Shown here: piece by piece, positions 1 through 54,438 of the stretch
Layout: each line of letters opens with the position of its first letter
Position numbering within the stretch: position 1 is the stretch's first letter
Origin: an uncultured Candidatus Peribacteria bacterium
GTDB lineage: Bacteria; Patescibacteriota; Gracilibacteria; BD1-5; UBA2023
Reading direction: 5' to 3'
NCBI GenBank assembly: GCA_964644075.1
Contig: CAZXUQ010000007.1
Coordinates: 35 to 64,034 of the forward strand
Length of the DNA stretch: 64,000 nt
Notes under the pieces: model-generated
What the model saw: only the letters and a program-made list of their open reading frames with translations
Database searches by the model: none
Told to the model about the DNA's origin: nothing
Made by a program: the position numbers and the translations under genes

Positions 1-556
1 CCGTGATTTTTCGTATCTCTCCCTCTATGAGCATACCCTCGGCAGTCGATGGATCGATCCCGTGCGACGCAAGATAAAATATTGCATCAGAGGAGATACG
101 GTGGATACGACAGGAGTGACCTCACTCGATCGAGTCTGTGGCGACTTCGAGGACAGGACGACCACGTACACGAGCTCCTTCACCGAGGAGGATATTATTT
201 TGGTCGACACGCAGTTTCACATCACTCGATCCTGGAGCTACCCGCCCGATACCATCGATTTCGATATTTGACCCGTCTCATGCGAGAGCGAGAAGATCGA
301 GCGATCCATCAGCGCGACTCCCTTCGATCGAAACGGTCAATTCTAGAACCATATTTGCTCATGTAGCGACCGCGCCACCACGAAATACTGCACCCTCCTC
401 GACGATGAAATGACGGACGTACTTTCCATCATTTCTCGGGATAAGGACATATTTCTGACACTCTCATGCACTGATCCTGATCTCACGAAACTCGATGTCT
501 CCTTCATCGAGGACTGAGGCATGATGCGTATGTATTTTTGGATTTTCGCACTTCAT
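1..556 (-). CDS. sufD: SufB/SufD-family Fe-S cluster assembly protein; N-terminal ~185 codons, gene runs off the left edge
   Basis: Minus-strand frame from ATG (rc at 554-556) reads MKCENPKIHTHHASVLDEGDIEF...NNILLGEGARVRGRPVLEVATDSIEGGHSCRIHRISSDAIFYLASHGIDPSTAEGMLIEGEI. This matches the SufB/D C-terminal signature (xLEIxxDDVxxxHGxxxGxxxxxxxFYLxSRGI). Four in-frame TGA read as Gly. Confidence 0.7.
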
Positions 557-757
557 ATGGCGAAGTATAGAGAGACTCTACGAAATGGCAAAGAGAAATC
601 TTTGGAAAAAGTGAGAAATTTTGATAATATAGAGAAAGTTTCGGGTTTTCAGGGGTTTTTGAAGAATATCTATGAACTTAGTAGGGGTTTGGGGGAAGAA
701 ACTGTTTGAGGCAGATGAGAACAGAAAAAAGAAAGGCAGAGCGAGCGAGTTTTTCTT

Positions 758-817
758 CCACCGAAACTTTTGGATACTTTTGGTTACAAAAGTATCAGGA
801 AAGAGACACCGGATTTC
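758..817 (+). promoter_or_regulatory. Conserved ~60-nt element with a perfect 9-bp hairpin (GATACTTTT-GGTTAC-AAAAGTATC at 773-796), about 60 nt upstream of the T4CP-like gene; copy A
   Basis: The same hairpin and similar flanks recur at 43326-43384 upstream of trxB. In both copies the flanks are oriented relative to the downstream gene. Confidence 0.45.
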
Positions 818-853
818 TTTCCCGTTCTGCAACCAGACAGGCTCAGCCTCGCA

Positions 854-3253
854 ATGACAAAAATCATGAATAATAACCATAGTATCATCACCTACGAAGT
901 ATCCGTCGACCGCGCCAATGAAAAGGGCGTTTTCGTCGCCCGCGAGATGCTCTCGACTCTTCACCATGCGATCGAACACGCGAGTCCATGGTGGAAATTT
1001 TGGACAGAGAAAGTTCACCCAAGTTTTCGTTTCGAAATCGTCGCTCGAGACGGACAGATACGGTTCTTTTTTTCGACAGATCGGGCTTTTGCATCATTTC
1101 TCTCGAGCCAGCTCTACGCTCACTATAGCGATATCGAGCTCATAGAAGTCTCTCACTCACTCGACTCTGAGAAATCCTACAGAGCCAAGGAAGTCACGCT
1201 CGCACACCACTCACTCGAGACGATCAAGCTCTATGTAAATATGAAAGATCGTACTGAAAAAGAATCTGTCGATCCACTCTCATCCCTCACGAGTGCGCTC
1301 GCGAAAGTAGCGAAGTGAGATAGTGCTGGATACATCATAGATTTCTCTCCACTCGAAGATCATGTCTGGCGAACTGAGCACCGCGCGCATATCTGGTGAT
1401 GGCATCTCCCTCTGGGTATCAAGATGCAACTCCTTCACTTCTGGTGATCGATCGGATGGCTCATGCTCCCCATCTCATGGTCGTTTGCTCTCGTAGGATG
1501 GCTCATGCCGAGAGACCAACATGAGACCCATGATGATGAAAAACACGAAAAAGGAAAAGTAGAAACCAAAATAGATACATTCGGATATATGGCCCGTATT
1601 CTCGTGGTGAAGGAAAAGAGAGATGCCCTCAGTGATGAGGTCATGATAAAAGAACTCGCGAGTAGTATGAATATTTTTGCTAACCCAGGGGGCAATAGTT
1701 TCCTCATGAAAAAAACAAAACTTCTCATGAGGCTCCCCCCTATAAAAAAACTCCCAAAATCCTCGATGATCCTCTCGACGACAGAGCTCGCAGGCATCAT
1801 CCATATGCCGACACTCTACGTGAAAACTCCGGGCATCCACTGGGTGACGACACGAAAATTTGAACCACCACATGAGCTCCCGAGTACAGATGCCCCCAAT
1901 ACTCCGATCGGTATGGCGAACTACCGTGGTGGGAAAGAAGGTTTTGGACTCAAACCTATCGATCGCGCTCGACATGTCTATATCATCGGTAAGACCGGTA
2001 TGGGAAAGTCGACGCTTCTCGAAAACATGATCTATACAGATATCCTCAATGGTCGAGGTGTCGCTGTGATCGACCCACATGGGGACCTCGTCGAGACGAT
2101 CCTCGCCAATATTCCGAAGTCACGAACCAACGATATCGTCCTCTTTGATCCTGCCGACCAGGAGTATCCGATCGCGTTCAATATGCTCGAAAATAGTCGT
2201 CCCGAGCTTCGTCCGATCGTGGCTGGCGGACTGGTATCGATCTTTAAAAAAATGTTTGCCGAGAGCTGGGGACCACGTCTCGAGTACATACTCCGTAACA
2301 CTATCCTCACGCTCCTCCTCATCCCTGAGACGACGATGATTTCTATACCGCTCATGCTCACACATGAGGCCTATCGAAGGAAGGTCGTCTCGAAGATCGA
2401 TGATCCGATCCTCGTACAGTTCTGGAATGAAGAATTTGCCAAGATGAGTCCCTCGATGCAGAGCGAGGCGGTGAACCCGATTTTGAATAAAGTCGGGCAA
2501 TTTCTCTCTTCTCCAATCCTCAGAAATATCCTCGGTCAGCCGAAAAATCCCTTTTCTCTGCGATGGATCATGGACAATGGGAAGATCTTTCTCGTGAACC
2601 TTTCGAAGTGACGCATCGGTGAAGATGCCAGTGCACTCCTCTGATCGATGATGGTGACCAAGTTCCAGATCGAGGCGATGACCCGAGCTGATATCCCCGA
2701 GAGTGAGCGTCGAGATTTCGGACTCTATGTCGATGAGTTTCAGAACTTCGCCACTGACTCTTTCGCGACTATCCTCTCCGAGGCTCGTAAGTACAAACTC
2801 TCTCTCACCATGGCGAACCAATATGTCGAACAAATGGCAGAAACCGTACAGGGTGCAGTATTCGGAAATGTCGGATCACTCATCGCTTTCCAGGTAGGCT
2901 ATCATGATGCTGTCACGTTTGCTGAGGTATTTGGCGGGGAAGACGTGATCACTCCACAGGACCTCACCAACCTCCGAAAATACGATATCTATACGAAGCT
3001 TCTCATCGATGGTATGCCTTCGCCAGTATTCTCTGCGACGACGTATGCGCCACTGCGGGACCGTATCGATGTACCTCCACAGCAGACACGTGATGTCCTC
3101 ATGAAGGTTTCTCGAGAAAAATACACCAAGAAAAAAGACTTCGTCGAAAAAAAGATCTTCGACACTGTGGCGAAGATCCGAGAAGAAGAGAAAAAGTATC
3201 GAGAAGAGAAAGAGTCCCACAAAGAGAAGAAGAAAGAAGGAAAAAAGGAGTAG
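854..3253 (+). CDS. VirD4/TraD-type coupling-protein-like ATPase, paralog 1 (about 799 aa)
   Basis: Three same-frame ORF fragments (770-1318, 1463-2611, 2648-3253) joined only by TGA. Motifs: Walker A IIGKTGMGKST, DPHGDL, Walker B-like LYVDEFQNF, SEARKYKLSL, GNVGSLIAFQVG (TraG/TraD C-terminal-type module). Central hydrophobic segment and K/E-rich tail. ATG at 854 chosen; the TTG at 770 lies inside the upstream hairpin. Confidence 0.8.
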
Positions 3254-3772: not shown

Positions 3773-3907
3773 GCGCGGTTTCTATATAAAAATAAGTTCG
3801 AATAACCTAATCATAACCTCTGTTTTGTCAAATTTTTTTCATACTATTCACTATCTGTCAATGACAGAATAGTTTTTGATTTCGAGAAAACTCCCTATAC
3901 TCCTCAG

Positions 3908-4079
3908 GCTCTCCATTCATGGTGGGGAGTGGTGGGCTTTTATATCCCCACCAACTTATTTTTCATTTTTATGAAAATAGTAGTTTCGCTCTCTGTTTGG
4001 AGAGTTCGATTTGCATTCGAGATTGTTCTCGGAAAGTAGATCGAAAAAATCCCCCTAAGTGGTACTATGGGGGATTTTT
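3908..4079 (+). ncRNA. Candidate small RNA, family copy 1 (paralog at 15208-15372)
   Basis: TATACT -10 box at 3896-3901. Nested helices CTCTCC...GGAGAG and GGTGGGGA...TCCCCACC, hairpins TTTTCATTTTTATGAAAA and TCGAGA-TTGT-TCTCGG. Intrinsic terminator ATCCCCC...GGGGGAT plus T-run at 4049-4079. The overlapping 80-aa ORF is not conserved in the paralog. Confidence 0.4.
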
Positions 4080-4157
4080 GATGGTGAGAAGCGATACGCT
4101 TTTATACCAACTTATTTGTCGTAGTTTCGTTCGACATGAGGATTATACCATATTTTC

Positions 4158-5192
4158 ATGAAAATCAAATTTTTCCTTCTCTCGAAAATTGCTTTTTTCC
4201 CTCTTTCTGCTAAAGTACAGAGTATAACTTTGTCTATGTTCAAACTCTTTCTCTCCATCCTAGCCCTCATACTCCCACTCGGAGCGACATTTGCTGCTAA
4301 CCCTACGACCGAGGAGCTCAATCTGAAAACTCCCACCATCAAAACACAGTGAGGTGAATCAGATGCACTCGCGACATTTATCGGACCTGTAGGTGAACTC
4401 TTTTTTATGCCGAGCTTGCGCGATGAGTCGGTGATCAATACATTTTTGAGTATTGCCTTTGCGCTCAAGAACTTTTTCATCGCTATTGCGGTGATATTTC
4501 TCATCATCGGAGTCCTCAAGCTCCTCTTCTCCTGGTGAGATGAGGAAGATATCAAAAAATGGCGGAGAAACATCATATGGACATCTGTGGGTATCGTCGT
4601 CATGCAGATAGCGACATCCGTCTGGCGCACGCTCTACCTCACTGAGTCTACCCAAAATATCGATGGTCGCCTCGGATGGCAGTTTTGGAGCAATATATTT
4701 GAGCCGCTCGTGAACCTCATGCTCATCGTGGCAGGATTTGGTTTCCTCCTCATGATGGTATATGCATTTTACATCATCGTGACGGGTGGTGGCGATGAGG
4801 AAAAACTCAAAAAATGAAAAAATATCGTGATCTACGCTGTGATCGGATTTCTCCTCATACGCATACCCCGTCTTTTTGTCATCGCTATCTACTGAGAACC
4901 GAAAGATGCCTGTAAAGACACGACTCTTTTCTCGATCGGTAACTGTATGATGTGAGAGAAAAAACTCGAGGGAGCTATCGGTATATTTGGAAAGATACTT
5001 TCTTTCGTCAATGGTTTCATCATGCTCATCACTGTAGCTCTCGTCATCTACGCAGGATGGCTCGTGCTCATCTCTGCCTGAGATGAGGAAAAACTCAAAA
5101 AAGCCAAAAATATTGCTCTCTATATCGTCGTCGGTCTCGTGCTCCTCGTCGCCTGACATGCTCTGTTTCGATTTTTTGTTCTCAGAGGGTAG
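4158..5192 (+). CDS. Membrane protein with three tandem VirB2/TrbC-like (T4SS pilin-type) repeats
   Basis: Same-frame fragments joined by TGA. Three helix / short acidic-basic loop / helix units: SGGDEEDIKKWRRNIIWTSVGIVVM, GGGDEEKLKKGKNIVIYAVIGFLL, SAGDEEKLKKAKNIALYIVVGLVLL. N-terminal signal-like MFKLFLSILALILPLGATFA (alternative start 4236). Confidence 0.65.
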
Positions 5193-5231
5193 AAGTTTGC
5201 TTTTTCCTCCTGTTTTCGATATACTCTACAC

Positions 5232-7661
5232 ATGACTGTGGGCGAGCTCATCTTCATTGTCCTGATGACTCTCACGATATCGTGAGTGGTCTATATTTCC
5301 ATGAGGAGAAAAATCGCTCTCAAGCGCTCTCTCGACATGACATTTTTGCGCGTCGTCATCGCTCGCAAGGACTCTGACGCTGATGAAAAAAAGGAAACAG
5401 TAAAAGATTTCCGAGAGCAAATATCGATCATGGAACAGCTCCTCGCGAGTCTCAAGTCACTCTACGCGAGTACGCTATCGGGTTGGCTTTTTGGTCAGGA
5501 ATATCTCTCTCTCGAGTATGTCGCCCATAAACAAGAGATTTATTTCTACATCGTCGTCCCGAAAAAAGCTCGCCTCCTCGTAGAAAAACAAATCATCGGT
5601 TTTTATCCTGATGCTTTCGTCGAGGAAACCCCAGAGATCAATATCTTCGAGGATCGAAGTACCATCGAGGGAGAGATCATGAAGCTCAAAAAAGCAGAAC
5701 AATTTCCGATACGTACCTACCAAAAACTCGAAAGTGATAGCATGAATGCGATCCTCTCTGCTCTCGGAAAGCTCTGAGAAGAAAACTCTGCTGCCATACA
5801 GATCCTCATGCGACCAGTAGATGATGACTGGCAGGAAAAAATCAAAAAACTCATCAGAAAAACTGAGAAAAAACACCATGGAAGTCACTTCTCGTGGAAC
5901 CCACTCGAGTGGATCGGCATACTGATCGACCTTTTTACTCGAGATCCGAGCGAAGAACGAGCAAAAGAAGAACCCAAAGATGACGAAGATCCGATCGATG
6001 ATGAAGGTCTCATGAAGGAAAAAGTGAAAAAAACAGGATATGCTACCACTATCCGCATCATCACGACATGACAGGATCGTGCAAGTGTCCATGCAGAACT
6101 CGAAAATATTATTTCATCTTTTTCCCAGTTTGCCTCCCCAGCGTATAACCGGTTCAAAGCTGTGAAAAGGAAATCTCTCTCTCTGCTCGTACACCACTAT
6201 ATATTTCGTCAGTTTGCCTGGTGGCAACACGCTCCGATCATGAACAGTGAGGAGATCGCCACGCTCTATCACTTCCCTGCGAGTAAATACAACCGACAAC
6301 CAGAGATCCGCTGGCAACGGTTCAAGCTCATAAAAGCACCTACGAATATCCCAAAAGAAGGTCTCTATATCGGGGATAATATTTTTCGTGGTGAGAAAAA
6401 ACCAATTTTCGTAAAAAATGAAGATCGTTTCCGACACTTCTACGTGATCGGACAGACAGGTACAGGAAAATCATCTATCCTCTCGACGATGATCCGTCAG
6501 GATCTGCGTGGTGAGAAATGACTCGCTGTCCTCGATCCACATGGTGATCTCGCTCGCGATACGCTGAACTTCATCCCGAAATCTCGTGCTGACGATCTCG
6601 TCTACTTTGACCCCGCTGACCTCTCTCGGCCGATGGGACTCAATATGCTCGAAGCGGTCAATGATGATGACAAACAGATGGTCGTCGCCGATGCGACCAA
6701 TATCATGATCAAGCTCTTTGGAAATGAGATATTTGGTCCGCGTATCCAGGACTACTTTCGAAACGGATGTCTTACACTCTTGGACTATCCACAGGGATGA
6801 GCCATCACAGATCTGATCCGTCTTTTTACCGATGATAACTTCCAGCGAGAGCGTCGTACCACTCTCAAAAACGCCGTCGTAAAAGCCTGGTGGGACTATA
6901 CCTATGCCAAGATGGGTGATCGAGAAAAGGGTGAAATCATCCCGTATTTCGCAGCGAAATTCGGTCAGTTCATCACCAATACACTCATGCGAAATATCGT
7001 GGGTCAGACAAAATCTGCCTTCGATATCACTGACATCATGAACAATGAGAAGATCCTCCTCGCAACTCTCTCGAAGTGAGTCCTCTGAGACCTCAACTCC
7101 AATCTCCTCGGTCTCATCCTCGTGTCAAAGATCCAGATCGCCGCCATGCGCCGACAAAATATGGCAAAAGAAGATCGAAAAGACTTTTTTCTCTATATCG
7201 ATGAATTCCAAAACTACGTCACTGACTCGATCGAGAGTATCCTCTCTGAGGCACGTAAATACCGTCTCGGTCTCGTGATAGCCCATCAGTACCTCGGCCA
7301 GCTCCAGAAATCCGATGCCCTCACTAAGTCGAACCTCAATCTAAAAGATGCGATATTCGGTAACGTGGGATCGATCATGAGTTACAAGATCGGACCCGAG
7401 GATGCCGAGATGATGGCGAAGCAGTTTGCTCCCGTCTACTCAGATCAGGACTTTATCAATATGGATAAATTTAAGGCAGCGCTCCAACTCTCAGTCGATG
7501 GACAACCAACGGCAGGGTTCTCACTCTCAGTCCCACTCCCGTGGCTTGAGAAATGAGATCCTACAACTGGAAATGCTCTCAAAGAACTCTCTCGACTCAA
7601 GTACGGTCGCGAGCGTGAGTTTGTCGAAAAAGAAATCATTTACCGCATCGGTGCCACATAG
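5232..7661 (+). CDS. VirD4/TraD-type coupling-protein-like ATPase, paralog 2 (about 809 aa)
   Basis: Fragments 5286-5777, 5808-6071, 6162-6521 and 7122-7556 share one frame and are joined by TGA. N-terminal TM helix. Motifs VIGQTGTGKSS, DPHGDL, GLNMLE, FLYIDEFQNY, SEARKYRLGL, GNVGSIMSYKIG. Confidence 0.8.
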
Positions 7662-9118: not shown

Positions 9119-9203
9119 TGGTGCCCAGGAAGAGACTTGAACTCTTACACCGTAAGGCAACGGCTTCTAAGACCGTCGTGTCTACCAATTCCACCACCTG
9201 GGC
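9119..9203 (-). tRNA. tRNA-Leu (anticodon TAG), class II, CCA encoded
   Basis: Reverse complement GCCCAGGTGGTGGAATTGGTAGACACGACGGTCTTAGAAGCCGT...GGTTCAAGTCTCTTCCTGGGCACCA. Anticodon loop CTTAGAA, long variable arm. Confidence 0.9.
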
Positions 9204-9215
9204 AGACATCCTGTA

Positions 9216-9300
9216 TGGTGGGCCGGGAGGGATTCGAACCCCCGAAGTCGTAGACAAAGGATTTACAGTCCTCCCCATTTGACCGCTCTGGAACCGACCC
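9216..9300 (-). tRNA. tRNA-Tyr (anticodon GTA), long variable arm, CCA encoded
   Basis: Reverse complement GGGTCGGTTCCAGAGCGGTCAAATGGGGAGGACTGTAAATCCTT...GGTTCGAATCCCTCCCGGCCCACCA. Anticodon loop CTGTAAA. Confidence 0.9.
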
Positions 9301-9313
9301 ATATATACAAAAA

Positions 9314-9389
9314 TGGAGCCACCTATCAGACTTGAACTGATGACCGCCGGTTTACAAAACCGATGCTCTACCAACTGAGCTAAGGTGGC
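9314..9389 (-). tRNA. tRNA-Thr (anticodon TGT), CCA encoded
   Basis: Reverse complement GCCACCTTAGCTCAGTTGGTAGAGCATCGGTTTTGTAAACCGGCGGTCATCAGTTCAAGTCTGATAGGTGGCTCCA. Anticodon loop TTTGTAA. Confidence 0.9.
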
Positions 9390-12571: not shown

Positions 12572-13987
12572 TTATACTCACTCCATTTCCATGCCTATGA
12601 GTATATTCATCTCCGCCGCATACTCGAGTGGGAGCTCCTTCATGAGCGGTGACACAAATCCTCTCACGATAAGTGTCTTTGCCTCATCCTCTGGGATCCC
12701 ATGTGACTCGAGGTAAAAGAGTACATCCTCACTAATCTTCCCGACGCTTGCCTCATGTGCGACCAGCGCATCATCGGTCGCGACACGGATATCTGGGATC
12801 GTATCGGATCGAGACTGGGGATCGAGGATGAGTCCATCACAGTCGATCTTTGCGACTGCGCCTTCTGCCGATTTTTTGATATCGAGAAGTCATCGGTATG
12901 TCGATATTCCTCCATTTTTCGAGAGAGATTTCGAGACGACTTCACTGGAAGTATGTTTACCGATGTGGATAACTTTCGCTCCAGTATCGGTATTTTGATC
13001 CTTGTTGGCGAATGCAATACCATAGTGGAGCGCTCGTGAGTTATCCCCTTTTAGGATCGAGCACGGATAGAGCATCGTGACTCATGAGCCGAGATTGCCT
13101 CCGATCCACTCGATCGATCCACTATTTTCCACGATAGCACGCTTAGTGTTGAGATTGTAGGTGTCGATTGACCAGTTTTCGACGGATGAGTAGCGCATCT
13201 TCGCATTTTTCCCGACATAGATCTCGACACATCCAGCATGGAGGCTCGCTGTTCCATATTTAGGAGCACTGCACCCTTCGATATAGTGTGCCTCTGCTTC
13301 ATCTTCGACGATGATGAGCGTATGCTCGAACTGTCATCCTGCTTTCACGTTCATACGGAAATACGCCTGGAGAGGATCAGCGATCTTCACGCCCTTCGGA
13401 ATATAGAGAAATGTCCCTCCGCTCCATACTGCTCAGTGGAGGGCAGCAAACATATGATCTGTCGGTGGGACACATTTCATGAAATGTTTTTTGATGAGAT
13501 CTGGATGTGAGTGGATCGCGACAGACATATCTTCGAAAAGGACTCCTTTTTTCGCAAGGTCTTCTCTCAGGTTATGGTAGACAACTTCACTATCATACTG
13601 GGCTCAGACTCAGGCGAGCACTTTCCGCTCTGCCTCAGGGATACCGAGTCGTTCAAAAGTGTTTTTTATATTTTCTGGCACTTCGTCCCAGGACTTTGTA
13701 TCTCATGCACCTTCAGGCTTCGCGAAATAGTAAATACTTTCGAGGTCGAGCTCTGAGAGAGATGGTCACCACGTCGGTTTTGTAAATTTTTTATAGAGCT
13801 CGAGGGATTTCAGACGATGTTCGAGCATCCAGCCTGGCTCTTTATTTGACTCTGAGATTTGTCTCACGACTTCTTCGTCGAGTCACTGCTTTGTTATTTT
13901 TTGGTAGTTCACAATATCACTCCCATCAAGTGTCGCCCGAGAGATGTCTCCAAATGCATGAATGTCGTCTGTATTGGTTGTAGTCAT
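12572..13987 (-). CDS. sufB: Fe-S cluster assembly protein SufB
   Basis: Full-length SufB-like translation ([14 protein letters not shown]...KPTWG...[25 protein letters not shown]...[22 protein letters not shown]...[34 protein letters not shown]). More than 10 in-frame TGA, all compatible with Gly. Confidence 0.95.
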
Positions 13988-13988
13988 A

Positions 13989-14717
13989 TTAAAATCCATT
14001 TTGCCTGATATCACTTATGAGCTCTTGTCCGCCATGGCGATCGATTTGTCAAGACTTCATAATGATGACGCGGTCAACATTTATAGAGTCAAGGAGATGA
14101 AAGTTATGAGAAATAATAATAATCATCTTCGACATACTTCGCCACTTATCGATCTCGCGAGAGAGGATATCTATGGCTCCGATATCCAGTCCAGCATCGA
14201 TCTCATCGAGGACGATCACACGAGGGTCCAAGAGAGCAATCTGGAGCATCTCGATACGGCGTTTTTCTCCTCATGAGAATCCGACGTAGAGATCTCGGTC
14301 GAGAAATTTTGGGTCGATACCATAGTCTGGGAGGAGCTTTTCTACTATGCGTCGAAAAACAAATGGTGTCGGTGGTTTGGCTTCTGGATTTTTACGACTA
14401 AATGCATGATTGTAGATCGTGCGAAGATACTCGATGAGGCGAATACCTGGGATTTCTGGAACATTTTGGAACGAGAGAAACATACTTTTTCTCGCGAGTT
14501 CATGTGGCAAAAGGCTACTGATATCCTCTTCATCAAGTCCTACTTCCCCACTCATCGTGTAGCGAGGATGGCGAAAAAGAGCGAATGCGAGTGAGGATTT
14601 CCCACTTCCATTCGTCCCGAGGAGTGCATATACGTGAGCATCCTCGAAAGTATAGGAAATATCAGGGATAATAATTTTATCCTCGACTGAGACAGAGATG
14701 TTCGAGAGACGAAGCAT
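13989..14717 (-). CDS. sufC: Fe-S cluster assembly ATPase SufC
   Basis: ABC ATPase motifs LLGTNGSGKSSL, GFSG(TGA)GEKRR, IVLDEIDAGLD, IIISH. C-terminus after TGA read-through is ...IIMKSGQIDRHGGQELISDIRQNGF. Stop is 1 nt from the sufB start. Confidence 0.95.
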
Positions 14718-14723
14718 GGCGAC

Positions 14724-14751
14724 ATGATAAGGATAGGATGGGAAAAATCAA
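14724..14751 (-). promoter_or_regulatory. Putative sufCB promoter: TTGATT-N16-TATCAT, with the -10 box only 6 nt from the ATG
   Basis: Reverse complement reads TTGATTtttcccatcctatcctTATCATgtcgccATG. The same TTGAxx-N16-TATAxT architecture recurs at other starts and at the sRNA modules. Confidence 0.4.
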
Positions 14752-14797
14752 AACATTTTCACTTTGATTTCATACTTCATTTTTATATACTAGTCGG

Positions 14798-14989
14798 GCT
14801 CCTAGTCCATCTATGGAGCTAGGAGTTATCATTAACCCTCTCATTTTATGAGAAAACTCCTGTATAGATGGCTCCTATTCTTCGGAATTGAGCCAGTCAT
14901 TCTCTTTCGGAGAGTGACAGGTCGGACTCGCAGGAAACTCTTGCGTCAGTACCGATAACAGAAAAAGAGCCTTCGTAGGGCTCTTTTTC
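14798..14989 (+). ncRNA. Candidate small RNA with consensus promoter and intrinsic terminator
   Basis: TTGATT (14764-14769), 16-nt spacer, TATACT (14786-14791). Hairpins CTCCTAG...CTAGGAG, TCTCATTTTATGAGA, GTCATTCTC-TTTCG-GAGAGTGAC and CGCAGG-AAACT-CTTGCG. Terminator AGAGCC-TTCGTA-GGGCTCT plus T-run at 14966-14989. No conserved ORF. Confidence 0.4.
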
Positions 14990-15207
14990 TTTGGAGTTAT
15001 CGCTAACAATCCTGTATAGATTTCGTCTTTCGACGACAGAAGCAGTATATATCACTTCCTAGAAAAATCAAAACTTTTTCCGAAAACTCACGAAAAATCC
15101 CTTCAGAAATGAGGGGATTTTTTATCTTTTCTAAAAACCAAAAGCCCTCGCATGAAGCGATGAAAGGGTCGGTTTGAATTCTGGAAAAGTTTCCATATAC
15201 TCTAGCT

Positions 15208-15372
15208 GCTCTCCACTCGGGTGGGGAGTGGTGGGCTTTTATATCCCCACCGAATACTTTTCATTTTTATGAAAATAGCTATTACATTCTCCGTTTGGAG
15301 AGTACGACTGGCTTTCGAGATCACTCTCGGGAAATAGTCATGAAAAAGACCCTTCTTCAGAGGGTCTTTTTC
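15208..15372 (+). ncRNA. Candidate small RNA, family copy 2 (paralog of 3908-4079)
   Basis: TTGAAT (15174-15179), 16-nt spacer, TATACT (15196-15201). Near-identical core GCTCTCCA.TC..GGTGGGGAGTGGTGGGCTTTTATATCCCCACC...TTTTCATTTTTATGAAAATAG...TTTGGAGAG...TTCGAGAT..CTCTCGG. The terminator has a different sequence but the same structure (GACCCT-TCTTCAG-AGGGTC plus T-run). Confidence 0.45.
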
Positions 15373-15480
15373 TTTGGTAGAGCAGTGAAGCTTTTACCAC
15401 CGAATACTTGTCGCTATTACATGACAATAGTATTATATCCCTCTTTCTCGAGAAATCAAAACTTTTTCTGAAAAGTCACC

Positions 15481-15506
15481 AAAAATCCCCCCGAAAATCG
15501 GGGGGA
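15481..15506 (-). terminator. Intrinsic terminator of the S-layer-like gene
   Basis: CCCCCCG-AAAAT-CGGGGGG followed, on the minus strand, by a T-run. Lies 36 nt after the stop. Confidence 0.7.
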
Positions 15507-15541
15507 AGATTGGACTTTAAAGAGAGAAGTTACCTAAAAAG

Positions 15542-18508
15542 TTAAGGAGCAGATGTAGCAGAAGCATTTACTTCAGTACCAACATCGTATGATCGGTTAA
15601 CTGCAACTCCATTAACAACATATGAAACGTTGCTAGCAGAAATAGTTACCTGATCTCCTGTTGCCCAACCTGGAACTGTATGCATGTATACTTCGAAGCT
15701 TGTTGAAGAGTTCTTCGTAAGTGGAACAGGTATTGTTGAAAGGTTGGCAAAGTAGAATGTACCAGTTACTCCTGCATTTACCGCTGTAACTGCATTGGAG
15801 TATCCTGAGTTTGTACAAGCATTTGTACCATTGCTGCTTCCACCAACTTCTCTTATACAAAGAAGGCTGTTGATAGTAGGAGCTGTTCCATTTGCAGTAT
15901 AGCGATACTTAAATTCGAGAGTAATACCCGAAAGAGTAATGCCTGTATTTGAGTCACCATTTGTAATGGTAATCTTAGCAATCGCCTTAGTACTTGCAAG
16001 AAGTTTAACAGAATCAACCTTGATTGAAGGTGGAACTACACTAATAGTGTAAGCCTTCATAGTTGATGTAAACGGTGGAAGAGCGACTGTAGCACCTCCA
16101 TTTACAGTAGTAACTGTAATATTTGTAGGGCTAATAATCTGGAGCTGAACTCCTGAACCGTAGATTGAATCAAGAGTCTTAACTGTAGTAAATACTACCT
16201 TAATATTCTGATCTTCATCCTTAGCAATGTCATTAGTCATACTATCTACAGTAACTGTGTTACCTGAAAGAGTGACTGTACCCTGAAGTTTTGCATCAGT
16301 GGCAACATTTCGAAGCTCAATGCTAGATGCATCTACAACATCTGAAAGAAGAGCTGAACCAATATTGTTAATAACAATCTTCGTTACACGAACTGCATCG
16401 CCTTCAGCACGAAGAGCGAAGCGTCCAACTTCCTGATTTGTCGTAGAAGAAATCTTATCGTTAGAATTTCCTGTGTTTACAGTAGCATTCTTGAGAGTAA
16501 GAGTAGGAGCCTGGATAGTAGTCTTATCACCAGTTACTGTATCAGTAAGAAGAGAAACTGCATTGTTAGCAGCATCACGAACATCCGCAAGTTTTACTTG
16601 GAATGTATAGTTCTGTGAACCAGCAACTGTGTTCTTGATAGAAGAACCAACGATAGTAATACGACCAGATGTGGCAGTATCAACAGGGATAGAGACGGTT
16701 TTAGTAATTGCATATGTAGCACCTGTAAAATCAGCAGAAGTGATTGTAGCAACTTCTGAACCATTTACTTTGACAGAGAGCTGATCATTAGCAAACGCAT
16801 ATACACCAGAGCTTGTTCCAGATGGAGTAATAACGAGCTGGCGAACATTGAGAGGAACTGTAGAAGTTACTTTTCCATCAAAGAGAGTCACGTTAGATGC
16901 TCCTGGGGCAACAGTCTGATTAACAGATGATTGCTTAGTATAAGTTACATCAACATTAGAGAAAGTAACAACTTCTGCAAATGATGCATACCCAGTAGTT
17001 GTGGTAGCATATCCTGTGGCAACCTCCGTAGCTGAAACATCAGAAGATGATTCGATCTTGAATCCGAGAGTGTTCGTAGAAGCACTTCCATCAACGAGAA
17101 CGTCAGCCTTGATTTCAAATGCCTGGAAGTTACCAGCAGCAAGAGCTGTAGAGAGACCTGTAACAGAAAGTTTATCTGCAGTTACAGTAGCAGTCCCAAC
17201 AGCAACACCGTTTTTGTATACCTTAACGTTAGCAAACTTCTTCGTAAGATCGTTTGATCCAGAACGAGTAAGAGTGAATCCGTTTACAGTAACATCACGG
17301 CTACCTGCGGTAAGATCTACTTTAGCGATAGTCTGCTGAGTTTTTCCTGGAGTAGCTGTATAGTTGTATGTACCAGCAACAGTTACTGAAGTAGTTACAT
17401 ATGAAGTAGTGTTGAGAAGACCAAGAGTCACTGGAGCACCAGTAACTGTAGTATTATCAGCATTTACAGCAGTAAGAGCAAACTGGTGTTGGCTATTCTC
17501 GGCACCTGAAAGGTTAACGAGGATATCTACAGTCTGAGATGCACCAGCCTTAACAGTAAGTGCAGGGTAGAAGTAGACAGTACCGTTCTGAGAAGTAGAG
17601 TTGTAGAAGTCAGAAGAAGACGATACAACGACACCATTCTGAGCAGCACGGATACCGTTATTTGAAGCGATATCGTTTGCATTACCAAGACCTGAACGAG
17701 TTACAACGAGTGATCGAACAGTAACGTCAGATGCTCCAGCTGTAAGCTTAACAGATCCAACCTTAACGCTAGAAGCGTTCTTTGGAACGTATTGAGCCAT
17801 AGCCTGACCATCGAGGGCAACTGTAAGAGCTCCCATAACTGTACCTGTAGAAGTCGTACCAGTAGATCCACCTGTAGATCCTGAACCAGTGTTTCCACCA
17901 GTAGATCCACCGTTGTCTACCTCGAGACCTGCACATGTAGCAGCTACCTTAAATGCTTCTCCACGAGTAGAGTTTGCATTTGGGCGGAAGTATGAACCAT
18001 CAGCGACACATCCGAGTTCGTTGGCACGGTTAACGTATCCAGCGAGATCTCCGAGACCGTTAAGGTCCATGTAACCAGCGTCTGTAGAAGATGCTGTCTC
18101 ACCGAGTGCTCCGAGGATCATCTTGACCATCTCAGCACGAGTGACATTAGCATTTGGACGGAATGTAGCAGAAGCAGTAGAAACTACACCTGCATCAGCG
18201 AGAGCCTCGATGTAACCACAGAGGTCTCCGAGACCTGTACCTACGTCAGAGTAGACGTCACCAGTACAAGCAACTGAATCAATTCCACCAAGGTTAGCAA
18301 CCACCTTTGCGATTTCCGCGCGAGTGATATTGCTAGAAAGACGGTATCCTGCCTCAGTAGACTGAGTAGAGATTACACCGTTATCAGCAAGCAGTTCAGC
18401 ATAAGGAAGAAACTCTGAAGCAGCAGCAACAAGTGATGCACTTGTAGAAGTAGCCACGAGAGTGACGATCCCCACACTAGAAGCAAGCTTCGTAAAGAAG
18501 TTACTCAT
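15542..18508 (-). CDS. S-layer-like surface protein with three N-terminal SLH repeats (about 988 aa)
   Basis: Signal-like MSNFFTKLASSVGIVTLVATSTSASLVAAA. SLH-type repeats (...ADNGVIS...ITRAEIAKVVANL; YIEALADAGVVS...FRPNANVTRAEMVKMILGAL; ...FRPNANSTRGEAFKVAA). Gly/Ser/Thr linker and long T/V/S/N-rich beta-type body. Uninterrupted even in the standard code (no TGA). ATG at 18508 preferred over the ORF-track start at 18571. Confidence 0.8.
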   Translation of the reverse strand: MSNFFTKLASSVGIVTLVATSTSASLVAAASEFLPYAELLADNGVISTQSTEAGYRLSSNITRAEIAKVVANLGGIDSVACTGDVYSDVGTGLGDLCGYIEALADAGVVSTASATFRPNANVTRAEMVKMILGALGETASSTDAGYMDLNGLGDLAGYVNRANELGCVADGSYFRPNANSTRGEAFKVAATCAGLEVDNGGSTGGNTGSGSTGGSTGTTSTGTVMGALTVALDGQAMAQYVPKNASSVKVGSVKLTAGASDVTVRSLVVTRSGLGNANDIASNNGIRAAQNGVVVSSSSDFYNSTSQNGTVYFYPALTVKAGASQTVDILVNLSGAENSQHQFALTAVNADNTTVTGAPVTLGLLNTTSYVTTSVTVAGTYNYTATPGKTQQTIAKVDLTAGSRDVTVNGFTLTRSGSNDLTKKFANVKVYKNGVAVGTATVTADKLSVTGLSTALAAGNFQAFEIKADVLVDGSASTNTLGFKIESSSDVSATEVATGYATTTTGYASFAEVVTFSNVDVTYTKQSSVNQTVAPGASNVTLFDGKVTSTVPLNVRQLVITPSGTSSGVYAFANDQLSVKVNGSEVATITSADFTGATYAITKTVSIPVDTATSGRITIVGSSIKNTVAGSQNYTFQVKLADVRDAANNAVSLLTDTVTGDKTTIQAPTLTLKNATVNTGNSNDKISSTTNQEVGRFALRAEGDAVRVTKIVINNIGSALLSDVVDASSIELRNVATDAKLQGTVTLSGNTVTVDSMTNDIAKDEDQNIKVVFTTVKTLDSIYGSGVQLQIISPTNITVTTVNGGATVALPPFTSTMKAYTISVVPPSIKVDSVKLLASTKAIAKITITNGDSNTGITLSGITLEFKYRYTANGTAPTINSLLCIREVGGSSNGTNACTNSGYSNAVTAVNAGVTGTFYFANLSTIPVPLTKNSSTSFEVYMHTVPGWATGDQVTISASNVSYVVNGVAVNRSYDVGTEVNASATSAP

Positions 18509-18636
18509 AATAATATATGGGTAAAAGAAATAAAGTGCGGATGACTCCGCGATTTGTTTGTGAAAAGTCATGGTCAGTGACTTTTCGGTGACTTCTCTGG
18601 TCAGGAGAAAGTCGCCTGTCTGTTTTTGAGGCAGAC

Positions 18637-18656
18637 GAGGTTAAAGCTTTAACCTC
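18637..18656. promoter_or_regulatory. 20-nt perfect palindrome GAGGTTAAAGCTTTAACCTC upstream of the S-layer-like gene
   Basis: Read directly. Lies about 130 nt upstream of the start codon, in a 600-nt non-coding leader/promoter region. Confidence 0.35.
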
Positions 18657-34810: not shown

Positions 34811-37800
34811 TTACTGAACGACAATTTCTTCATAGATCATGCTGACGCCATGTTCACGAGAGAGAATGTCTTTATTGATGACTGGGGCATTTGCCTCTGT
34901 TTTTCCCTGGGCTGCATCGAGGAGTTTTATAGCTTCCCCGTAGGTAATAGAGTCATCTCCACGGAAGCTCGGCATATCAGGATTGATCCACCCCATGACG
35001 ATACCAAATACGATATACTTACGGAACTCAGAGTTTCCGACATCACGGAACTTCATGACGCTATCCATGTCTGACATTTCCTCAAATCCATAGGCAAGAG
35101 AGAGGACTTTCATAAACTCGTTTCGTGTCATCGGACGCTCAGGATCAAACTTCTTTGTATTTTTTACATACCCACTTTCTATCATCGCAGTGATAGCTTC
35201 CTGGTAGTCAGAGTTGTCGATGTCTGACACGATGATATCTTGTGTCGAAGTTGTCGAAAGTGGAGTTTGTGCCTCTGTATGCACTCCTTCTGGAGTATTT
35301 CTGAGGAGACGTTCGAGAGCGGTTATTCCAAGTTGCATATTTGGATTACTTGATACAGTCGAAGTTGCCTGATTTGCCGAAGGGACAAGTGGAACTCCAC
35401 CAATGATGTTTCCACCTCCGCCCCCTCCACCTCATGTACTTGGTGCAATGACAACCGGAGCTGGCACTACCACATTTACGATACGGGATACAGGAGTTGC
35501 CTGATTTCCTACACTATCAGAAACTGTATATACTAGAGTGTATGATCCTGTCAGTGATGTATTCACAGAACCTGATCGAGTTACCATTCCTGTGATATTA
35601 CCATCGACATTATCTGTCGCGACTACTCACATGTCTGTGTAGGTTGTACCCTGAGTGACCGTCGTAGGACTCGTACCGAGGAGCGTGATCACTGGTGCCG
35701 TCGTGTCGATGTTCGCCACATTTGCCACTACTGATCCTGTATTTCCAGATGCATCCTGAAATGTAAAGGTAAATGAACCATTTGAACTAAATACATAGTT
35801 CGAATTTCCAGTATTATTGGTAATCGTAATCAACTCACTTGCTCCCGTAAGAGTCGCTGTCACACTTCCACTTGTTGTCGAAAGTGTCGAATATGTCACA
35901 CTGGCTGTCGGAGGAGTAGTGTCGACGACATGGATGGTACGGACTGCCCCTGTACCGACATTCGATGAACTGTCCGTATATTCATATGAAACAATATACG
36001 TTCCCAGTGCTCCTGTATTTACACTTCCACTATTGTACCCTGAGATGAATCCACTTCCATCGACATTATCTGTCCATGATGCCCCATCATCGACAAACCC
36101 TGACCCGAACTCAACATTGACTGTCGCAGCTCCTGAGAGTGTGATGACAGGAGGAGTGGTGTCTGGTGCAGCAAGGACATTGACTGTACGGAATGCTATG
36201 CCAACATTTGAAGAGCTATCAGTGTAACGGTACTCAATCATATACGTGCCTACAGTATTGGTATCTACAGATCCAGAGTAGACTCATACTGTGCCAGAGC
36301 CATCATATGCATCGGTCCAACTTGCTCCACTTTCCGTATAAGTGTCACCTACCACGAGTGTAATAAGAGAACCACCTACGGCTACTACACTTGGTGCTGT
36401 CGTATCTTGTACTATGATTGTTCTATCGGCTCCTGTACCAACATTTGAAGAGCTATCCGTATATTCGTATGACACAGTATAGGTTCCGAGTGCCCCTGTG
36501 TTGACGGATCCACTCGTATATCCTGGTATAAATCCACTTCCATCGACATTATCTGTCCAACTCGCTCCATCATCGATAAAATCATTTCCATACTCGACAT
36601 TGACTGTCGCAGATCCAGAAAGAGTAATCACTGGAGGTGTGGTATCTGGAACTGGTATGATGTTCACACTACGAGACGTCGATCCTGTATTTCCAGAACT
36701 ATCTACATAGTTGTATCAGATAGTATATGTACCTACAGTGTTTACATCGAGAGTTCCACTGTTGTAACTCGGTATCACTCCTGCACCATCGTGAAGGTCT
36801 GTCCATGTGGCACCAGAGTCGCTAAATACACTACCGGAGAGGAGAGTAATCATACCAGAACCAACGAGTGTCACTACTGGCACTGTCGTATCTACGACAT
36901 TGACTGTACGAGAAACTGAACCCGTATTTCCAGAACTATCGATGTATCGGTAACCGAGCGTATATGTTCCGAGTGTTCCTGTATTGACCGATCCAGTTGT
37001 CGCTACTGGGATGAGCCCTGACCCATCGTAAGCATCTGTCCATGATGCACCATCTTCACTATAGTCATTTCCATACTCGACATTGACTGTTGCAGATCCA
37101 GACAGGGTGACAACTGGTGCCGTCGTATCTACGACACTCACAGTTCTCGTTACAGTTCATGTATTTCCTGATATGTCTGTGTAGGTATACTCAAGAGTGT
37201 AATTCCCGAGTACTCCCGTATTTACTGCCCCGCTCGTCGCACTTAGGATCACTCCTGCACCATCGTGAAGGTCTATCCATGATGCTCCGAGTTCGACATA
37301 TGCATTCCCATATTCGACATTCAGAGTTGATGATCCAGAAAGGGTGACGACAGGATTGGTCGTATCGATAACACTGACTGTACGACTCGTGGATCCTGTA
37401 TTCCCCGCACCATCTGTATAGCTATACTCGAGTATATAGGTTCCGAGTGCCCCGGTATTTACACTTCCACTTGTTGCAGTAGCAATATATCCAGAACCGT
37501 CGATATTGTCTGTCCAACTCGCCCCATCTTCACTATAGTCATTTCCATATTCGACATTGACTGTCGCAGATCCAGAAAGAGTGACAACTGGAGGAGTCGT
37601 ATCTGGTGCAGAAAGGACATTGACGGTACGAGAAACTGAACCTGTATTTCCAGAAATATCAGTATATTCATATGCGATCGTGTAGGATCCAGTACTATTG
37701 GTGTCGAGAAAGCCACTATTGTAACTCGGGATCACTCCTGCACCGTCATGGAGGTCTGTCCATGATGCTCAGACATCCGTATACCCACTTCATACGAGGA

Positions 37801-40800
37801 TACTCACGAGAGCAGCTCCAGAAAGAGTGACGACTGGAGCGGTCGTGTCCTCTACTACTACTGTACGAGTAGCTCATGAACTATTCCCCGCATCATCTAC
37901 CTTCAGATACTCGAGCACATACGTTCCAAGAGATCCAGTATTTACGCTTCCTGAGAGAGCAAATGACCCTGGAGTTCCATAGCTTCCTGTGAAAACATTT
38001 CATGAACCATCGACGTTATCTGTCCATGAAGCACCATCCTCACTATAGTCATTGCCATACTCGACAGAGACTGTCGCAGATCCTGAGAGTGTTACTACGG
38101 GTGCTAATGCGTCAGTTACCGTCACTGTACGAAATCCCATACCGACATTTCCTCAGCCGTCAGTGTAACGATACTCAAGAATATATACTCCTGGAGTATT
38201 TATATCGACCGCTCCAGTATATGGAGTCGCGAGAAATCCAGAACCATCGACGTTATCTGTCCATGTGGCTCCACTTTCTGTATAGCTTGCACCTTGGTTT
38301 ATCGTCACGAAGTTTCCTCCTACTGGAATGACACTCGGCCCTGTCATATCAGCGACAGTGACGCTACGAGTAACCTGGACTGCAGGATTGCTCGCAGCAT
38401 CTGTCACATCGTATGTGATGATGTACGTACCAGTATGACTCGTATCGACTGTTCCACCAGTCATGATGCTGGCTGTGATATCCCCGTCGACATTATCGAG
38501 TGCTGTCGCTCCACTATCCACATAGATAGATCCATGAGCCACTATCATCGTTCCTGATCCGATGAGGGTGATGACGGGAGGGGTTGTGTCTGGTGCAGCT
38601 ATGACGTTTACTGTACGACTTATTGACCCTGTATTTCAGGAACTATCTATATATCGATAGCTGAGTACATATGTCCCGAGAGATCCAGTATTTACTAACC
38701 CACTATATGGTCCCGAGAGATTTCCCGATCCATCGTGGACATCACTCCATGATGCTCCTGACTCTGTATAGATCGAGTTTTGGTATATCGTGAGGTTTCC
38801 TGATCCGATGAGCGTCACGGTGGGAGCGGTAGTATCTACGACATTCACAGTCCTTCCTGTCGAAGTACTATTCCCCGCACCATCTGTGTAGCTGTACTCG
38901 AGCATATAGGTTCCGAGTGCTCCTGTATTTACGCTTCCACTTGTTGCGGTAGCAATAAACCCAGAACCATCTACATTATCTGTCCAACTCGCCCCATCAT
39001 CGACAAACCCTGACCCAAACTCGACATTGACTGTCGAAGATCCTGAGAGCGTGATTACCGGTGCTGTCGTGTCGATGTTCGCCACGCTTGCCACTACTGA
39101 TCCTGTATTTCCAGATGCATCCTGAAATGTAAAGGTAAATGAACCATTTGAACTAAATACATAGTTCGAATTTCCAGTATTATTGGTAATCGTAATCAAC
39201 TCACTTGCTCCCGTAAGAGTCGCTGTCACACTTCCACTTGTCGTCGAAAGTGTCGAATATGTCACACTGGCTGTCGGAGGAGTTGTGTCTCGCACAACTA
39301 CACTTCGTGTCGCACCAGAGCTATTTCCTGAACTGTCTACTTTCAGGTACTCGAGCGTATACGTTCCGAGTGCTCCTGTATTTACACTTCCTGAAACAGC
39401 AAATGATCCTATGTTCCCATATGTTCCTACAAAAGTATCCCCAGAACCATCTACGTTATCTGTCCATGATACTCCTGGTTCCATATAATCATTCCCAAAT
39501 TCTACATACTCAATCATGGATCCAGAGAGTACTACTACTGGAGGAGTGTTATCTGGTGCAGCTATGACGTTTACTGTACGACTTGTTGACCCTGTATTTC
39601 CTGCACCATCTGTATAACTATATTCCAGTATATACGTTCCGAGTGCTCCTGTGTTGACTGATCCACTCGTCGCACTCGGGATAGTTCCTGATCCATCATG
39701 GATATCATTCCATGATGCTCCTGGGTCAGTATAGGTACTGCCAATAATGATGCTATCTGGATCTGCTCCTGAGAGGGTTACAGTAGGCGCAGTAGTATCT
39801 ACGACATTCACAGTCCTTCCTGTCGAAGTTGCATTTCCTGCATTATCTACTTTCTTATAATCCAGACTATACGTTCCAAGAGATCCAGTATTTACGCTTC
39901 CTGAGAGAGCAAATGACCCTGGAGTTCCATAGCTTCCTGTGAAAACATTTCATGAACCGTCTACATTATCTGTCCATGACGCACCATCTTCTGTATAGTC
40001 ATTTCCATATTCGACATTGACTGTCGAAGATCCAGAAAGAGTGACGACTGGAGGAGTCGTATCTCACCCCATTCCATATGATACTATCATAGATGCACTC
40101 CCCACGCCTACGTAATTTTGACTAAAATCATATCCTCCTGCTTGGTACTCGAGTCTTTGTGTAGCTACAGAGACTACGTTTCCAGTCGTCCAAACGGGAG
40201 AATTGTCTATATAAACCTCGTAATCTGTATGTCCAGTGTTTGGTGTGAGTGTTGTTAGAGCATCAGAGAGAGTCGAGTTTCTAGTATCAAAAATAAATAC
40301 TCCTCCTGTTTCGGTGATCGTCTGTCATGTAGTTGTTCCTACTCATCCACAAACAGATATAGATCCAATATCACGTAAACATACGGATCCGACAAAACTT
40401 CCTACTCCACCAGTCATACTTACTAAAAGAGTTACCCCAGATATTGTCATGCCAGTATTGCTATCTAAATTGGTCACGTGGATTTTTCCTATCGGAGCAC
40501 CATTCTGAAGACCACCAGAGTGCCCAGTGAGTACAACGGCTGGAACGGTGATAGATGCTGTATAGAGCTTCATAGCAGAAAGCATACTATCGTCGACAGC
40601 GAGTGGTGAGCTATCTGCATCTTTTACGATACTGATCATACCAGAGTTCGTCGAGAGACGAAGGGTTTGTCCATAGTATGGTTCCACTGGGCCAGCCTGG
40701 ATCACTACTTTATAGTTCGTCGTCGTATATCCAGGAGTGATAGAGTTCACTCATGAGAAACTGATCGTCTGTCATGAGATAGTCCCGACCGCGAGAAGTG

Positions 40801-41701: not shown

Positions 41702-41823
41702 ATGGATATGTGTATGGATATAAATACCCATAGAGACTACTCCATACAAAAAAATATAGCAATCTTCTTACCTTGTTTTCTGAGGAAAATGAATTGACAA
41801 AAATGTATTATAAATTCTATATA

Positions 41824-46965: not shown

Positions 46966-47201
46966 GTTTTGATCCGACTCTTTGACACTTTGTCTCTTTT
47001 TCCCTCCGTCCTCGGAGGGATTTTTCAAGGGCGATACTCTTGTCATGAGATAAGTATATCTTCTAAAATACTTTCGATCACAGAAATCCAGAGAAAAACT
47101 CTTTCGTGCAGTATTTCGCATTTCTGTAAAGTCGAAATACCCCTCTCTATTTGGAAGTGGGGTTGTTTTCTGGTACTATCAGAGGAGTTATCACTTTTTT
47201 C

Positions 47202-54391: not shown

Positions 54392-54438
54392 CAGAAAAAT
54401 ATATAGATATGATAGTCTAAGGATATAACTATTTTTCT

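Follow-up and report, generated by a model that had tools for sequence, protein, structure and literature searches.

Among described toxin–antitoxin (TA) systems of type I, those closest to the element examined here, module 3 of a 64,000-nucleotide stretch of Gracilibacteria DNA (GenBank assembly GCA_964644075.1, contig CAZXUQ010000007.1; the whole stretch is hereafter the window), are par of Enterococcus faecalis pAD1 (RNA I/Fst, RNA II) and par_EF0409, SprA1/SprA1AS and Fst-Sm/srSm. In the par(pAD1) locus and its homologues, convergent promoters serve two RNAs that share one bidirectional terminator, direct repeats bracket the AUG, 5' structures are present, and orthogonality comes from divergence of the repeats (PMC7472228). 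The bsrG/SR4 system consists of an mRNA with a small open reading frame (ORF) and a convergent, 3'-overlapping antisense RNA controlling mRNA decay and/or translation (PMC3834814), and most known type I toxins are hydrophobic, α-helical transmembrane (TM) peptides (PMC8309996). In the literature consulted, type I TA systems are placed only in Proteobacteria, Firmicutes and Tenericutes, with one cyanobacterial candidate; a full-text literature search combining 'type I toxin-antitoxin' with 'Gracilibacteria' found no paper. Module 3 and its paralog, module 1, are read here, from sequence, as par-like type I TA-type cassettes, and are put forward as candidates for a new family of type I TA-like systems, found in a lineage of the candidate phyla radiation.

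Predicted RNA pairing and the short reading frame of module 3

It is moderately likely that module 3 functions as a type I TA system. The plus-strand promoter would yield an mRNA of ~165 nt whose sole conserved ORF specifies a 22-residue cationic, β-amphipathic peptide, with the start codon held in the weak A/U hairpin H3, between the very stable, near-invariant H1–H2 and the hairpins of the coding region; the convergent promoter would yield an antisense RNA of ~85 nt, stopping at the bidirectional terminator that also closes the mRNA. As its gene is a deleted direct repeat of the mRNA 5' region, the antisense RNA could pair with the mRNA twice, at the terminator and over ~47 base pairs (bp) either side of the AUG hairpin, clamping the initiation region such that 30S binding would be blocked and/or the duplex marked for RNase degradation. 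A drop in antisense RNA would then allow the peptide to be made, with presumed harm to the cell. We infer production of both RNAs with the predicted ends, translation of the ORF, toxicity of the peptide and its neutralisation by the antisense RNA; the likeness to par is drawn because the convergent promoters, shared terminator, AUG-bracketing repeats and predicted orthogonality of paralogs match par(pAD1), with 5' hairpins also predicted.

RNAduplex predicts 47 pairs between the short and long RNAs at -54.8 kcal/mol, against -24.2+-3.6 kcal/mol for shuffled antisense sequences, and the target blocks flank the AUG hairpin, which the pairing skips. Net of unfolding, the 5' contact of module 3 is worth a free-energy difference (ΔΔG) of -19.1 kcal/mol, with the AUG hairpin standing between two intermolecular helices; at the other end, the shared terminator provides ~30 nt of perfect 3' complementarity between both RNAs, the resulting duplex being perfect, with a cofold ΔΔG of -22.9 kcal/mol. 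Because the 5' and 3' contacts cannot be drawn in one nested structure, the minimum free energy (MFE) cofold of the full RNAs draws the 3' terminator duplex only, and the 5' contact was evaluated separately. The antisense gene itself is an internally deleted, presumably ancient direct-repeat copy of the 5' region of the long RNA: an internal repeat alignment matches 15247-15287 with 15397-15438, and, relative to the long RNA, the TATCC of the H2 loop and the entire H3 are deleted.

Across 11 copies of the module, 88% of pair cells hold standard pairs, compared with 43-53% when the partner is slid, and 17 pairs have changed on both sides (2-6 when slid; matched by 0 of 500 shuffles). In the two variable blocks, 9 of 13 and 6 of 10 pairs have double-sided changes; in the helix formed against the invariant H1/H2, 12 pairs vary on the antisense side only and remain G-C or G-U, which favours RNA pairing over mere identity of a DNA repeat. 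Summed over cognate partners, the duplex energy is unmatched in 200000 random re-pairings, and net ΔΔG is -16.9 kcal/mol for cognate against -5.3 kcal/mol for non-cognate pairs. Within this genome, module 1 reaches -20.0 and module 3 -19.1 kcal/mol with the cognate partner, against -2.1 and -7.0 kcal/mol for the cross-pairs; modules 1 and 3 should not cross-talk and are predicted to be orthogonal.

A window-wide RNAduplex scan ranks the cognate 5' region first among transcribed-sense targets. An earlier model-made reading of the same letters (the first-pass annotation) had suggested that the short RNA be checked for pairing with the long RNA or with the mRNAs of neighbouring surface-protein genes: the former is found, as ~47 co-varying pairs with its own long RNA, and for the latter there is no comparable match to S-layer (or suf) mRNAs, no suf or SLH gene being among the best 12 matches of the scan. 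The conserved sense/antisense pair is very probably real. As a separate observation, a likeness exists between the antisense RNA of module 3 and the coding strand of a type IV secretion system (T4SS) pilin gene at 4561-4680 (RNAduplex -50.9 kcal/mol against the opposite strand), where the pilin protein reads ...QIATSVWRTLYL... and the peptide reads ...IAITFSVWRVRL; this resemblance may be due to chance, helped by the palindrome AATAGCTATT.

Each of the 13 copies that carry the ORF keeps it at 22 codons, in the same frame and closed by TAG or TAA, and these copies stem from at least eight Gracilibacteria genomes or contigs. The ORF of module 3 has no UGA codon. In eight copies found by a pattern confined to the untranslated regions, and blind to the ORF, synonymous (pS) and nonsynonymous (pN) divergence are 0.43 and 0.16, a pN/pS of 0.36 in frame against 1.00 and 0.99 in the other frames, with 2 of 1000 column shuffles reaching the in-frame value; variable columns number 9, 6 and 13 of 21 at codon positions 1, 2 and 3, respectively. 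All four synonymous codons are used among copies at both Val9 (Leu in one copy) and Val12, the exchange of Arg13 for Lys involves more than one base, and R13Q is accompanied by A/S15R on the same β-strand face, such that net charge is kept. Replacements are of a conservative kind (R/K, I/V/L); 11 of 12 scored copies have a net charge of +3 and the twelfth has +4, with +4 also for copy L134 by hand count. Hydrophobic and polar residues alternate, with a hydrophobic moment of 0.42-0.63 at the β period (170 degrees) versus a helical moment of 0.04-0.31, and the peptide is accordingly described as a predicted cationic β-amphipathic 22-mer and not a TM helix. Searches of Pfam and NCBIfam with MKIAITFSVWRVRLAFEITLGK at E<=10 gave no match.

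No Shine–Dalgarno (SD) sequence precedes the ORF, which is no objection, since none of the seven other gene starts examined (among them 14717-14751, 4190-4240, 3782-3830 and 18575-18640) has one; several of these look leaderless, including sufC (TATCAT-6 nt-ATG) and the pilin gene (TATAAC-7 nt-ATG). Indels between copies just 5' of the ATG break the frame and so rule out a longer ORF beginning upstream. Where the first-pass annotation had seen a structured small RNA, the stable, conserved fold stands; the conserved 22-codon ORF carries coding-type substitutions, such that for the long RNA a small mRNA is a likelier identity than a non-coding one, and the ORF is probably translated.

The transcription signals proposed in the first-pass annotation were confirmed. 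A promoter scan bears out the sense promoter at 15174-15201; the sequence and spacing of the antisense promoter hold, at a position one base from that claimed (15432-15459, not 15431-15458); and the terminator placed at 15347-15372 is present as A5-stem-T5 at 15343-15371. Promoter-like matches in the window are not enriched when taken alone (7 found versus 3.8+-2.4 expected); across copies, the sense -10 element TATACT ends exactly 7 nt before H1 (CTCTCC) in 9 of 10 complete copies, with L084 as the variant, and the antisense promoter, TTGayw-N15-17-TATA(A/C)T with a conserved GUC start, is found in 10/10 complete copies from other Gracilibacteria genomes. The A5-6/stem/T5-6 terminator is likewise kept in 10/10 complete copies, with differing spacers. 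The notion of a self-contained two-promoter module with a predicted short opposite-strand RNA is upheld.

The MFE structure of the long RNA comprises five hairpins and the terminator (-72.8 kcal/mol; z=-7.7 versus shuffles), and the long RNA of module 1 folds comparably (z=-7.9). All five hairpins are kept in the 10 copies of the long-RNA alignment, H1 begins at the predicted first nucleotide, and H3 holds the AUG in all copies. The core sequence quoted in the first-pass annotation, GCTCTCCACTCGGGTGGGGAGTGGTGGGC, is present at 15208-15236 and is matched in 0 of 100 shuffles. The intramolecular stems are supported by thermodynamics and conservation; as they are nearly invariant, intramolecular covariation is not used as proof of structure. 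With Rfam 15, the whole window yields tRNAs only at the gathering score, and a permissive search of 14000-16000 gives best scores of 17-27 bits against thresholds of 49-90, where csRNA, SpF10 and MCS4 were rejected as terminator-driven sub-threshold matches. The 5' end GCUCUCC (15208-15214) nearly matches the 5' arm of H4, UUCUCC, and owing to this near-identity could leave H1 and bind the GGAGAG of codons 10-12 in H4; the long RNA might then adopt a second, long-range fold of the sort known from some type I toxin mRNAs.

Table 1. Features of module 3, its paralog and its surroundings in the window
Feature	Position	Strand	Basis or remark
Sense promoter TTGAAT-N16-TATACT	15174-15201	+	promoter scan; putative start G15208
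Long RNA, ~165 nt, candidate toxin mRNA	15208-15372	+	fold, conservation
H1	15208-15229	+	predicted hairpin
H2	15230-15251	+	predicted hairpin
H3, AUG hairpin	15258-15275	+	predicted hairpin
H4	15286-15303	+	predicted hairpin
H5	15306-15339	+	predicted hairpin
ORF, ATG to TAG, 22 codons, encodes MKIAITFSVWRVRLAFEITLGK	15269-15337	+	conserved length and frame
Bidirectional intrinsic terminator AAAAAGACCC-loop-GGGTCTTTTT	15343-15371	both	common to both RNAs
Short antisense RNA, ~85 nt, candidate antitoxin	15425 to ~15340	-	putative start G 15425, shared terminator end
Antisense promoter TTGATT-N16-TATAAT	15432-15459	-	10/12 consensus positions
Target region on long RNA	15220-15287	+	three blocks, RNAduplex
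Target block 1, H1 3' arm through H2 loop	15220-15241	+	
Target block 2, H2 3' arm and linker	15247-15259	+	
Target block 3, codons 4-7	15278-15287	+	
Direct-repeat copy of 5' region, read in antisense	15376-15422	+	internal alignment, direct reading
Repeat block	15376-15396	+	direct sequence reading
Repeat block CCACCGAATACTT	15397-15409	+	direct sequence reading
Repeat block GCTATTACAT	15413-15422	+	direct sequence reading
Module 1, whole	3876-4168	both	paralog of module 3
Module 1 long RNA	3908-4079	+	
Module 1 ORF, encodes MKIVVSLSVWRVRFAFEIVLGK	3971-4039	+	
Module 1 antisense RNA	4135 to ~4042	-	
Module 1 antisense promoter	4142-4168	-	
sufB	12572-14014	-	code-25 reading
sufC	13989-14789	-	ABC_tran match
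SLH-domain surface protein gene	15542-18640	-	PF00395
Extra terminator	15092-15123		upstream of module 3
Extra terminator	15486-15506		belongs to SLH gene

Copies, genomic contexts and host

Modules 3 and 1 align at 15173-15352 and 3875-4054 with 77% identity over 182 nt (E=3.8e-34), in agreement with the paralogy reported in the first-pass annotation, and alignment of their minus-strand RNAs confirms that these too are homologous. Searching with the alignment, nhmmer finds exactly two copies in the window, and a short-RNA gene adjoins every long-RNA copy. Copies elsewhere were found by pattern scans of sequence collections, such that all counts are lower bounds: the invariant 5'-hairpin pattern gave at least six copies in four Gracilibacteria metagenome-assembled genomes (MAGs), and patterns built on the ORF brought in the genome contigs L122 and L134 together with L126, L127 and L129 from metagenomes. 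In the JGI metagenomes, an exact 32-mer of the 5' domain had 0 matches and a degenerate ORF pattern retrieved three true loci. Including the two in the window, the tally stands at no fewer than 11 complete modules, one 5'-clipped module and several partial ones, with at least three copies in one MAG. All related loci found are assigned to Candidatus Gracilibacteria or, in three cases, lie on mis-binned-looking code-25 contigs: L123 (in a Gallionella sp. bin) and L134 and L135 (in Sulfurospirillum sp. bins) carry the module together with code-25-type ORF statistics, and are probably mis-binned Gracilibacteria contigs.

The neighbours of the copies vary: suf and SLH genes for module 3 and L019; a VirD4/TrwB-like coupling-protein and T4SS-pilin locus for module 1 and L119; and an RRM-protein gene for L084. 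Since the flanking genes differ between copies, the unit is autonomous and tied to no neighbour. A riboswitch or leader, already discounted in the first-pass annotation, is ruled out, as no plus-strand gene lies downstream of module 3 (the next gene being the minus-strand SLH gene) and the copies occupy unrelated contexts. No match to the module was found among viral contigs or in plasmid and phage collections (blastn for the latter two), and there is therefore no evidence of carriage on known mobile elements. The window holds three paralogous VirD4/TrwB-like coupling-protein genes (347-3253, 5193-7661 and 47130-50201, plus strand; PF10412, PF12696) and a three-domain T4SS pilin gene (4125-5192, plus strand; PF18895), placing module 1 within a T4SS-type locus; the L119 copy sits after an ortholog of the coupling-protein gene.

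A second cassette family is present at 14764-15125 of the window (module 2), at 1990-2533 of L019 and at 3640-4000 of L027, the last adjoining tRNA genes. It follows the RNA plan of the 22-residue family, with one hairpin at the 5' end and another around the AUG, a bidirectional terminator and, in convergent orientation, an antisense gene that repeats the 5' region minus the AUG hairpin; its peptides have 32-36 residues and basic tails, for example MRKLLYRWLLFFGIEPVILFRRVTGRTRRKLLRQYR and MKSFSIDLPYWKHRLLCIEMYTRRKRVVKRKR; in three genomes it stands in tandem with the 22-residue family. Remnants of the module at 6060-6399 of L129, 2238-2364 of L123 and ~3950-4300 of L135 have lost the promoter and start of the ORF; what they retain is its 3' half together with the terminator and antisense gene. 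Unrelated sequence has taken the place of the 5' hairpins in L129a and L123a, where the match between the antisense RNA and its neighbour is also gone.

The host uses genetic code 25 (UGA=Gly, Gracilibacteria). With TGA read as sense, ORFs of >=150 residues sum to 167 kb versus 38 kb (six frames, whole window), and it is this roughly fourfold gain, together with TGA at the second glycine of the SufC ABC signature (FS-TGA-GEKRR) and at further glycine-type positions of SufB, that identifies the code. Because UGA is a sense codon, a table 11 ORF list is misleading here, with most genes of the window fragmented, and its 58-residue TTG ORF at 15295-15471 was rejected as spurious. The spacer between sufC and the SLH gene, 820 nt long, houses module 2 and module 3 (15174-15459), which form insulated cassettes fenced by the two extra terminators (Table 1). 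Further afield, code 25 reveals giant ORFs at 34811-41767 (minus strand) and 54421-60774 (plus strand), of ~2300 and ~2100 residues, with many internal repeats of roughly 237-480 nt, likely encoding surface proteins. A tRNA cluster occupies 9119-9389 (minus strand; Leu(TAG), Tyr(GTA), Thr(TGT)), and a lone tRNA-Leu(GAG) lies at 63819-63902 (minus strand).

Weighing the type I toxin–antitoxin reading

Two hallmarks of type I TA systems have counterparts in module 3: for the small toxin gene (usually under 60 residues), the conserved 22-codon ORF, and for the antisense RNA gene that adjoins or overlaps it and is complementary to its mRNA, the convergent gene of the short RNA. Several points weigh against the TA reading or against the strength of its support. 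The hydrophobic α-helical TM toxin of most type I members is absent, the longest uncharged run of the peptide being 8 residues with no TM helix predicted, and confidence in the toxin label is only moderate because the peptide is non-helical, cationic and β-amphipathic. The intramolecular stems are almost invariant, only 2 of 35 pairs being compensatory (H2 and the terminator stem hold one each); shared descent of the copies means that pN/pS and covariation counts overstate the number of independent events; and, as the antisense gene is a DNA direct repeat, some of the co-variation could in principle come from gene conversion. In X15, a wastewater metatranscriptome whose unstranded contigs derive from relatives, some contigs match the long RNAs of modules 2 and 3 at 90-95% identity. 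Coverage of these contigs is about as deep as that of nearby genes in the relatives concerned, and two of them reach upstream of the predicted start; X15 neither proves nor refutes discrete transcripts.

The evidence for the ORF and for RNA–RNA pairing fits equally well with a non-toxic small-protein gene under antisense control, with an ordinary role, for example as a membrane/envelope-associated or stress-induced micro-protein, and no addiction; a peptide lacking the hydrophobic TM helix usual in type I toxins also suits such a gene. Less readily accommodated are the presence in one genome of several paralogs that have diverged and have orthogonal antisense RNAs of their own, the unrelated contexts of the copies (including a T4SS-type locus), the tandem arrays with a second peptide family, and the remnants that lost the peptide start and kept the antisense gene. 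Multi-copy orthogonality, contexts, arrays and remnants are more in keeping with selfish modules of a TA-like kind, at whose behaviour they hint, than with a micro-protein that does housekeeping; the micro-protein account is judged rather unlikely. If the long RNA were instead a structured small RNA with an antisense or sponge partner, its ORF would be incidental to the hairpins. Such a non-coding pair would explain the very stable fold (z=-7.7) and the 5' 45 nt, which are more conserved than the ORF and nearly identical in eight copies, and, as H4 and H5 lie inside the ORF, RNA structure also constrains its codons. It would leave unexplained why pN/pS falls to 0.36 in the ORF frame only, why third codon positions are the most variable (13/21 versus 6/21 at second positions), and why start, stop and length are invariant in 13 copies despite indels just upstream; the conservative substitutions (R/K, I/V/L and the charge swap R13Q with A15R) and the lack of an Rfam match also count against it, and it is judged improbable.

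A module that lies between two minus-strand operons, in terminator-rich sequence, and is repeated in the genome might also be a passive or cis-acting intergenic element, whether a terminator or insulator repeat, read-through of the S-layer or suf transcripts, or a repeat resembling a miniature inverted-repeat transposable element and without RNA function. Separate terminators fence the module on either side (15486-15506 and 15092-15123), it has two conserved promoters of its own, its ends show no terminal inverted repeats or target-site duplications when inspected by eye (no inverted-repeat scan), copies also occur away from suf and S-layer genes, and the ORF and the sense/antisense covariation would go unexplained; such an element is very improbable. 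A bolder proposal, speculative and in our estimation improbable, goes beyond self-addiction: Gracilibacteria would carry arrays of antisense-gated genes for very short cationic β-amphipathic peptides unlike any known type I toxin, the almost invariant 45-nt H1–H2 would have a function of its own as RNA, for example in recruiting ribosomes or a protein where initiation does without SD sequences, and the peptides might act on the host or prey envelope of these episymbionts and not on the producer alone. The par-like type I TA cassette is the reading carried forward below.

Comparison with described systems

The peptide brings to mind, as no more than a lead, the cationic β-hairpin antimicrobial peptides arenicin and tachyplesin, in having ~20 residues, a net positive charge and alternating hydrophobic and Arg residues (VWRVRL); unlike these, it has no cysteines, obvious turn or secretion signal, and there is no evidence of export. 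At the RNA level, module 3 resembles bsrG/SR4 in that the 3' end of a small-ORF mRNA overlaps that of a convergent antisense RNA. The txpA/RatA locus is another convergent, 3'-overlapping type I TA system, and systems of the bsrG/SR4 and txpA/RatA type rely on a long 3' overlap, whereas in module 3 the 3' overlap consists of the terminator only and the main copy-specific pairing is predicted at the 5' end, via direct repeats.

In this respect the cassette is nearer to par. As in par, convergent promoters meet at one bidirectional intrinsic terminator that gives 3' complementarity, repeats (15220-15259 and 15278-15287, matching 15376-15422) are arranged in the manner of DRa/DRb with the AUG hairpin between them, and paralogs in one cell are kept orthogonal by repeat divergence, in module 3 as a prediction. 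Intramolecular structures at the 5' end of the par toxin mRNA occlude initiation (PMC7472228); module 3 has the predicted hairpins H1 and H3 in this region and no SD to sequester, and, the host lineage being without evident SD use, it would be the AUG hairpin and its flanks that are sequestered. The differences from par are that module 3 shows no sequence similarity (no Rfam, Pfam or NCBIfam match), belongs to a host with UGA=Gly and without evident SD use, and has a longer complementarity, ~47 bp in three blocks. Its peptide, with 22 residues, cationic and β-amphipathic, also departs from the Fst/Ldr toxins, which are marked by a hydrophobic domain with PXXXG(C), a conserved Trp and a charged C-terminal tail: it has neither that domain, nor the PXXXG motif, nor the tail, and no Pro. 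On account of the peptide, module 3 is taken to work like par and is not filed in the Fst/Ldr family.

Module 3 would thus represent a new family of a known kind of system, the mechanism itself being known. If this is true, the par-type RNA architecture extends to a candidate-phyla-radiation lineage with code 25 and operates amid apparently SD-less or leaderless translation, with a new family of β-amphipathic peptides of only 22 residues, and at least two peptide families share one RNA design in tandem arrays. Annotation pipelines miss such modules because the ORF is too short for gene callers and UGA recoding breaks the neighbouring genes. The natural orthogonal sense/antisense pairs would also offer a ready test bed for RNA–RNA specificity.

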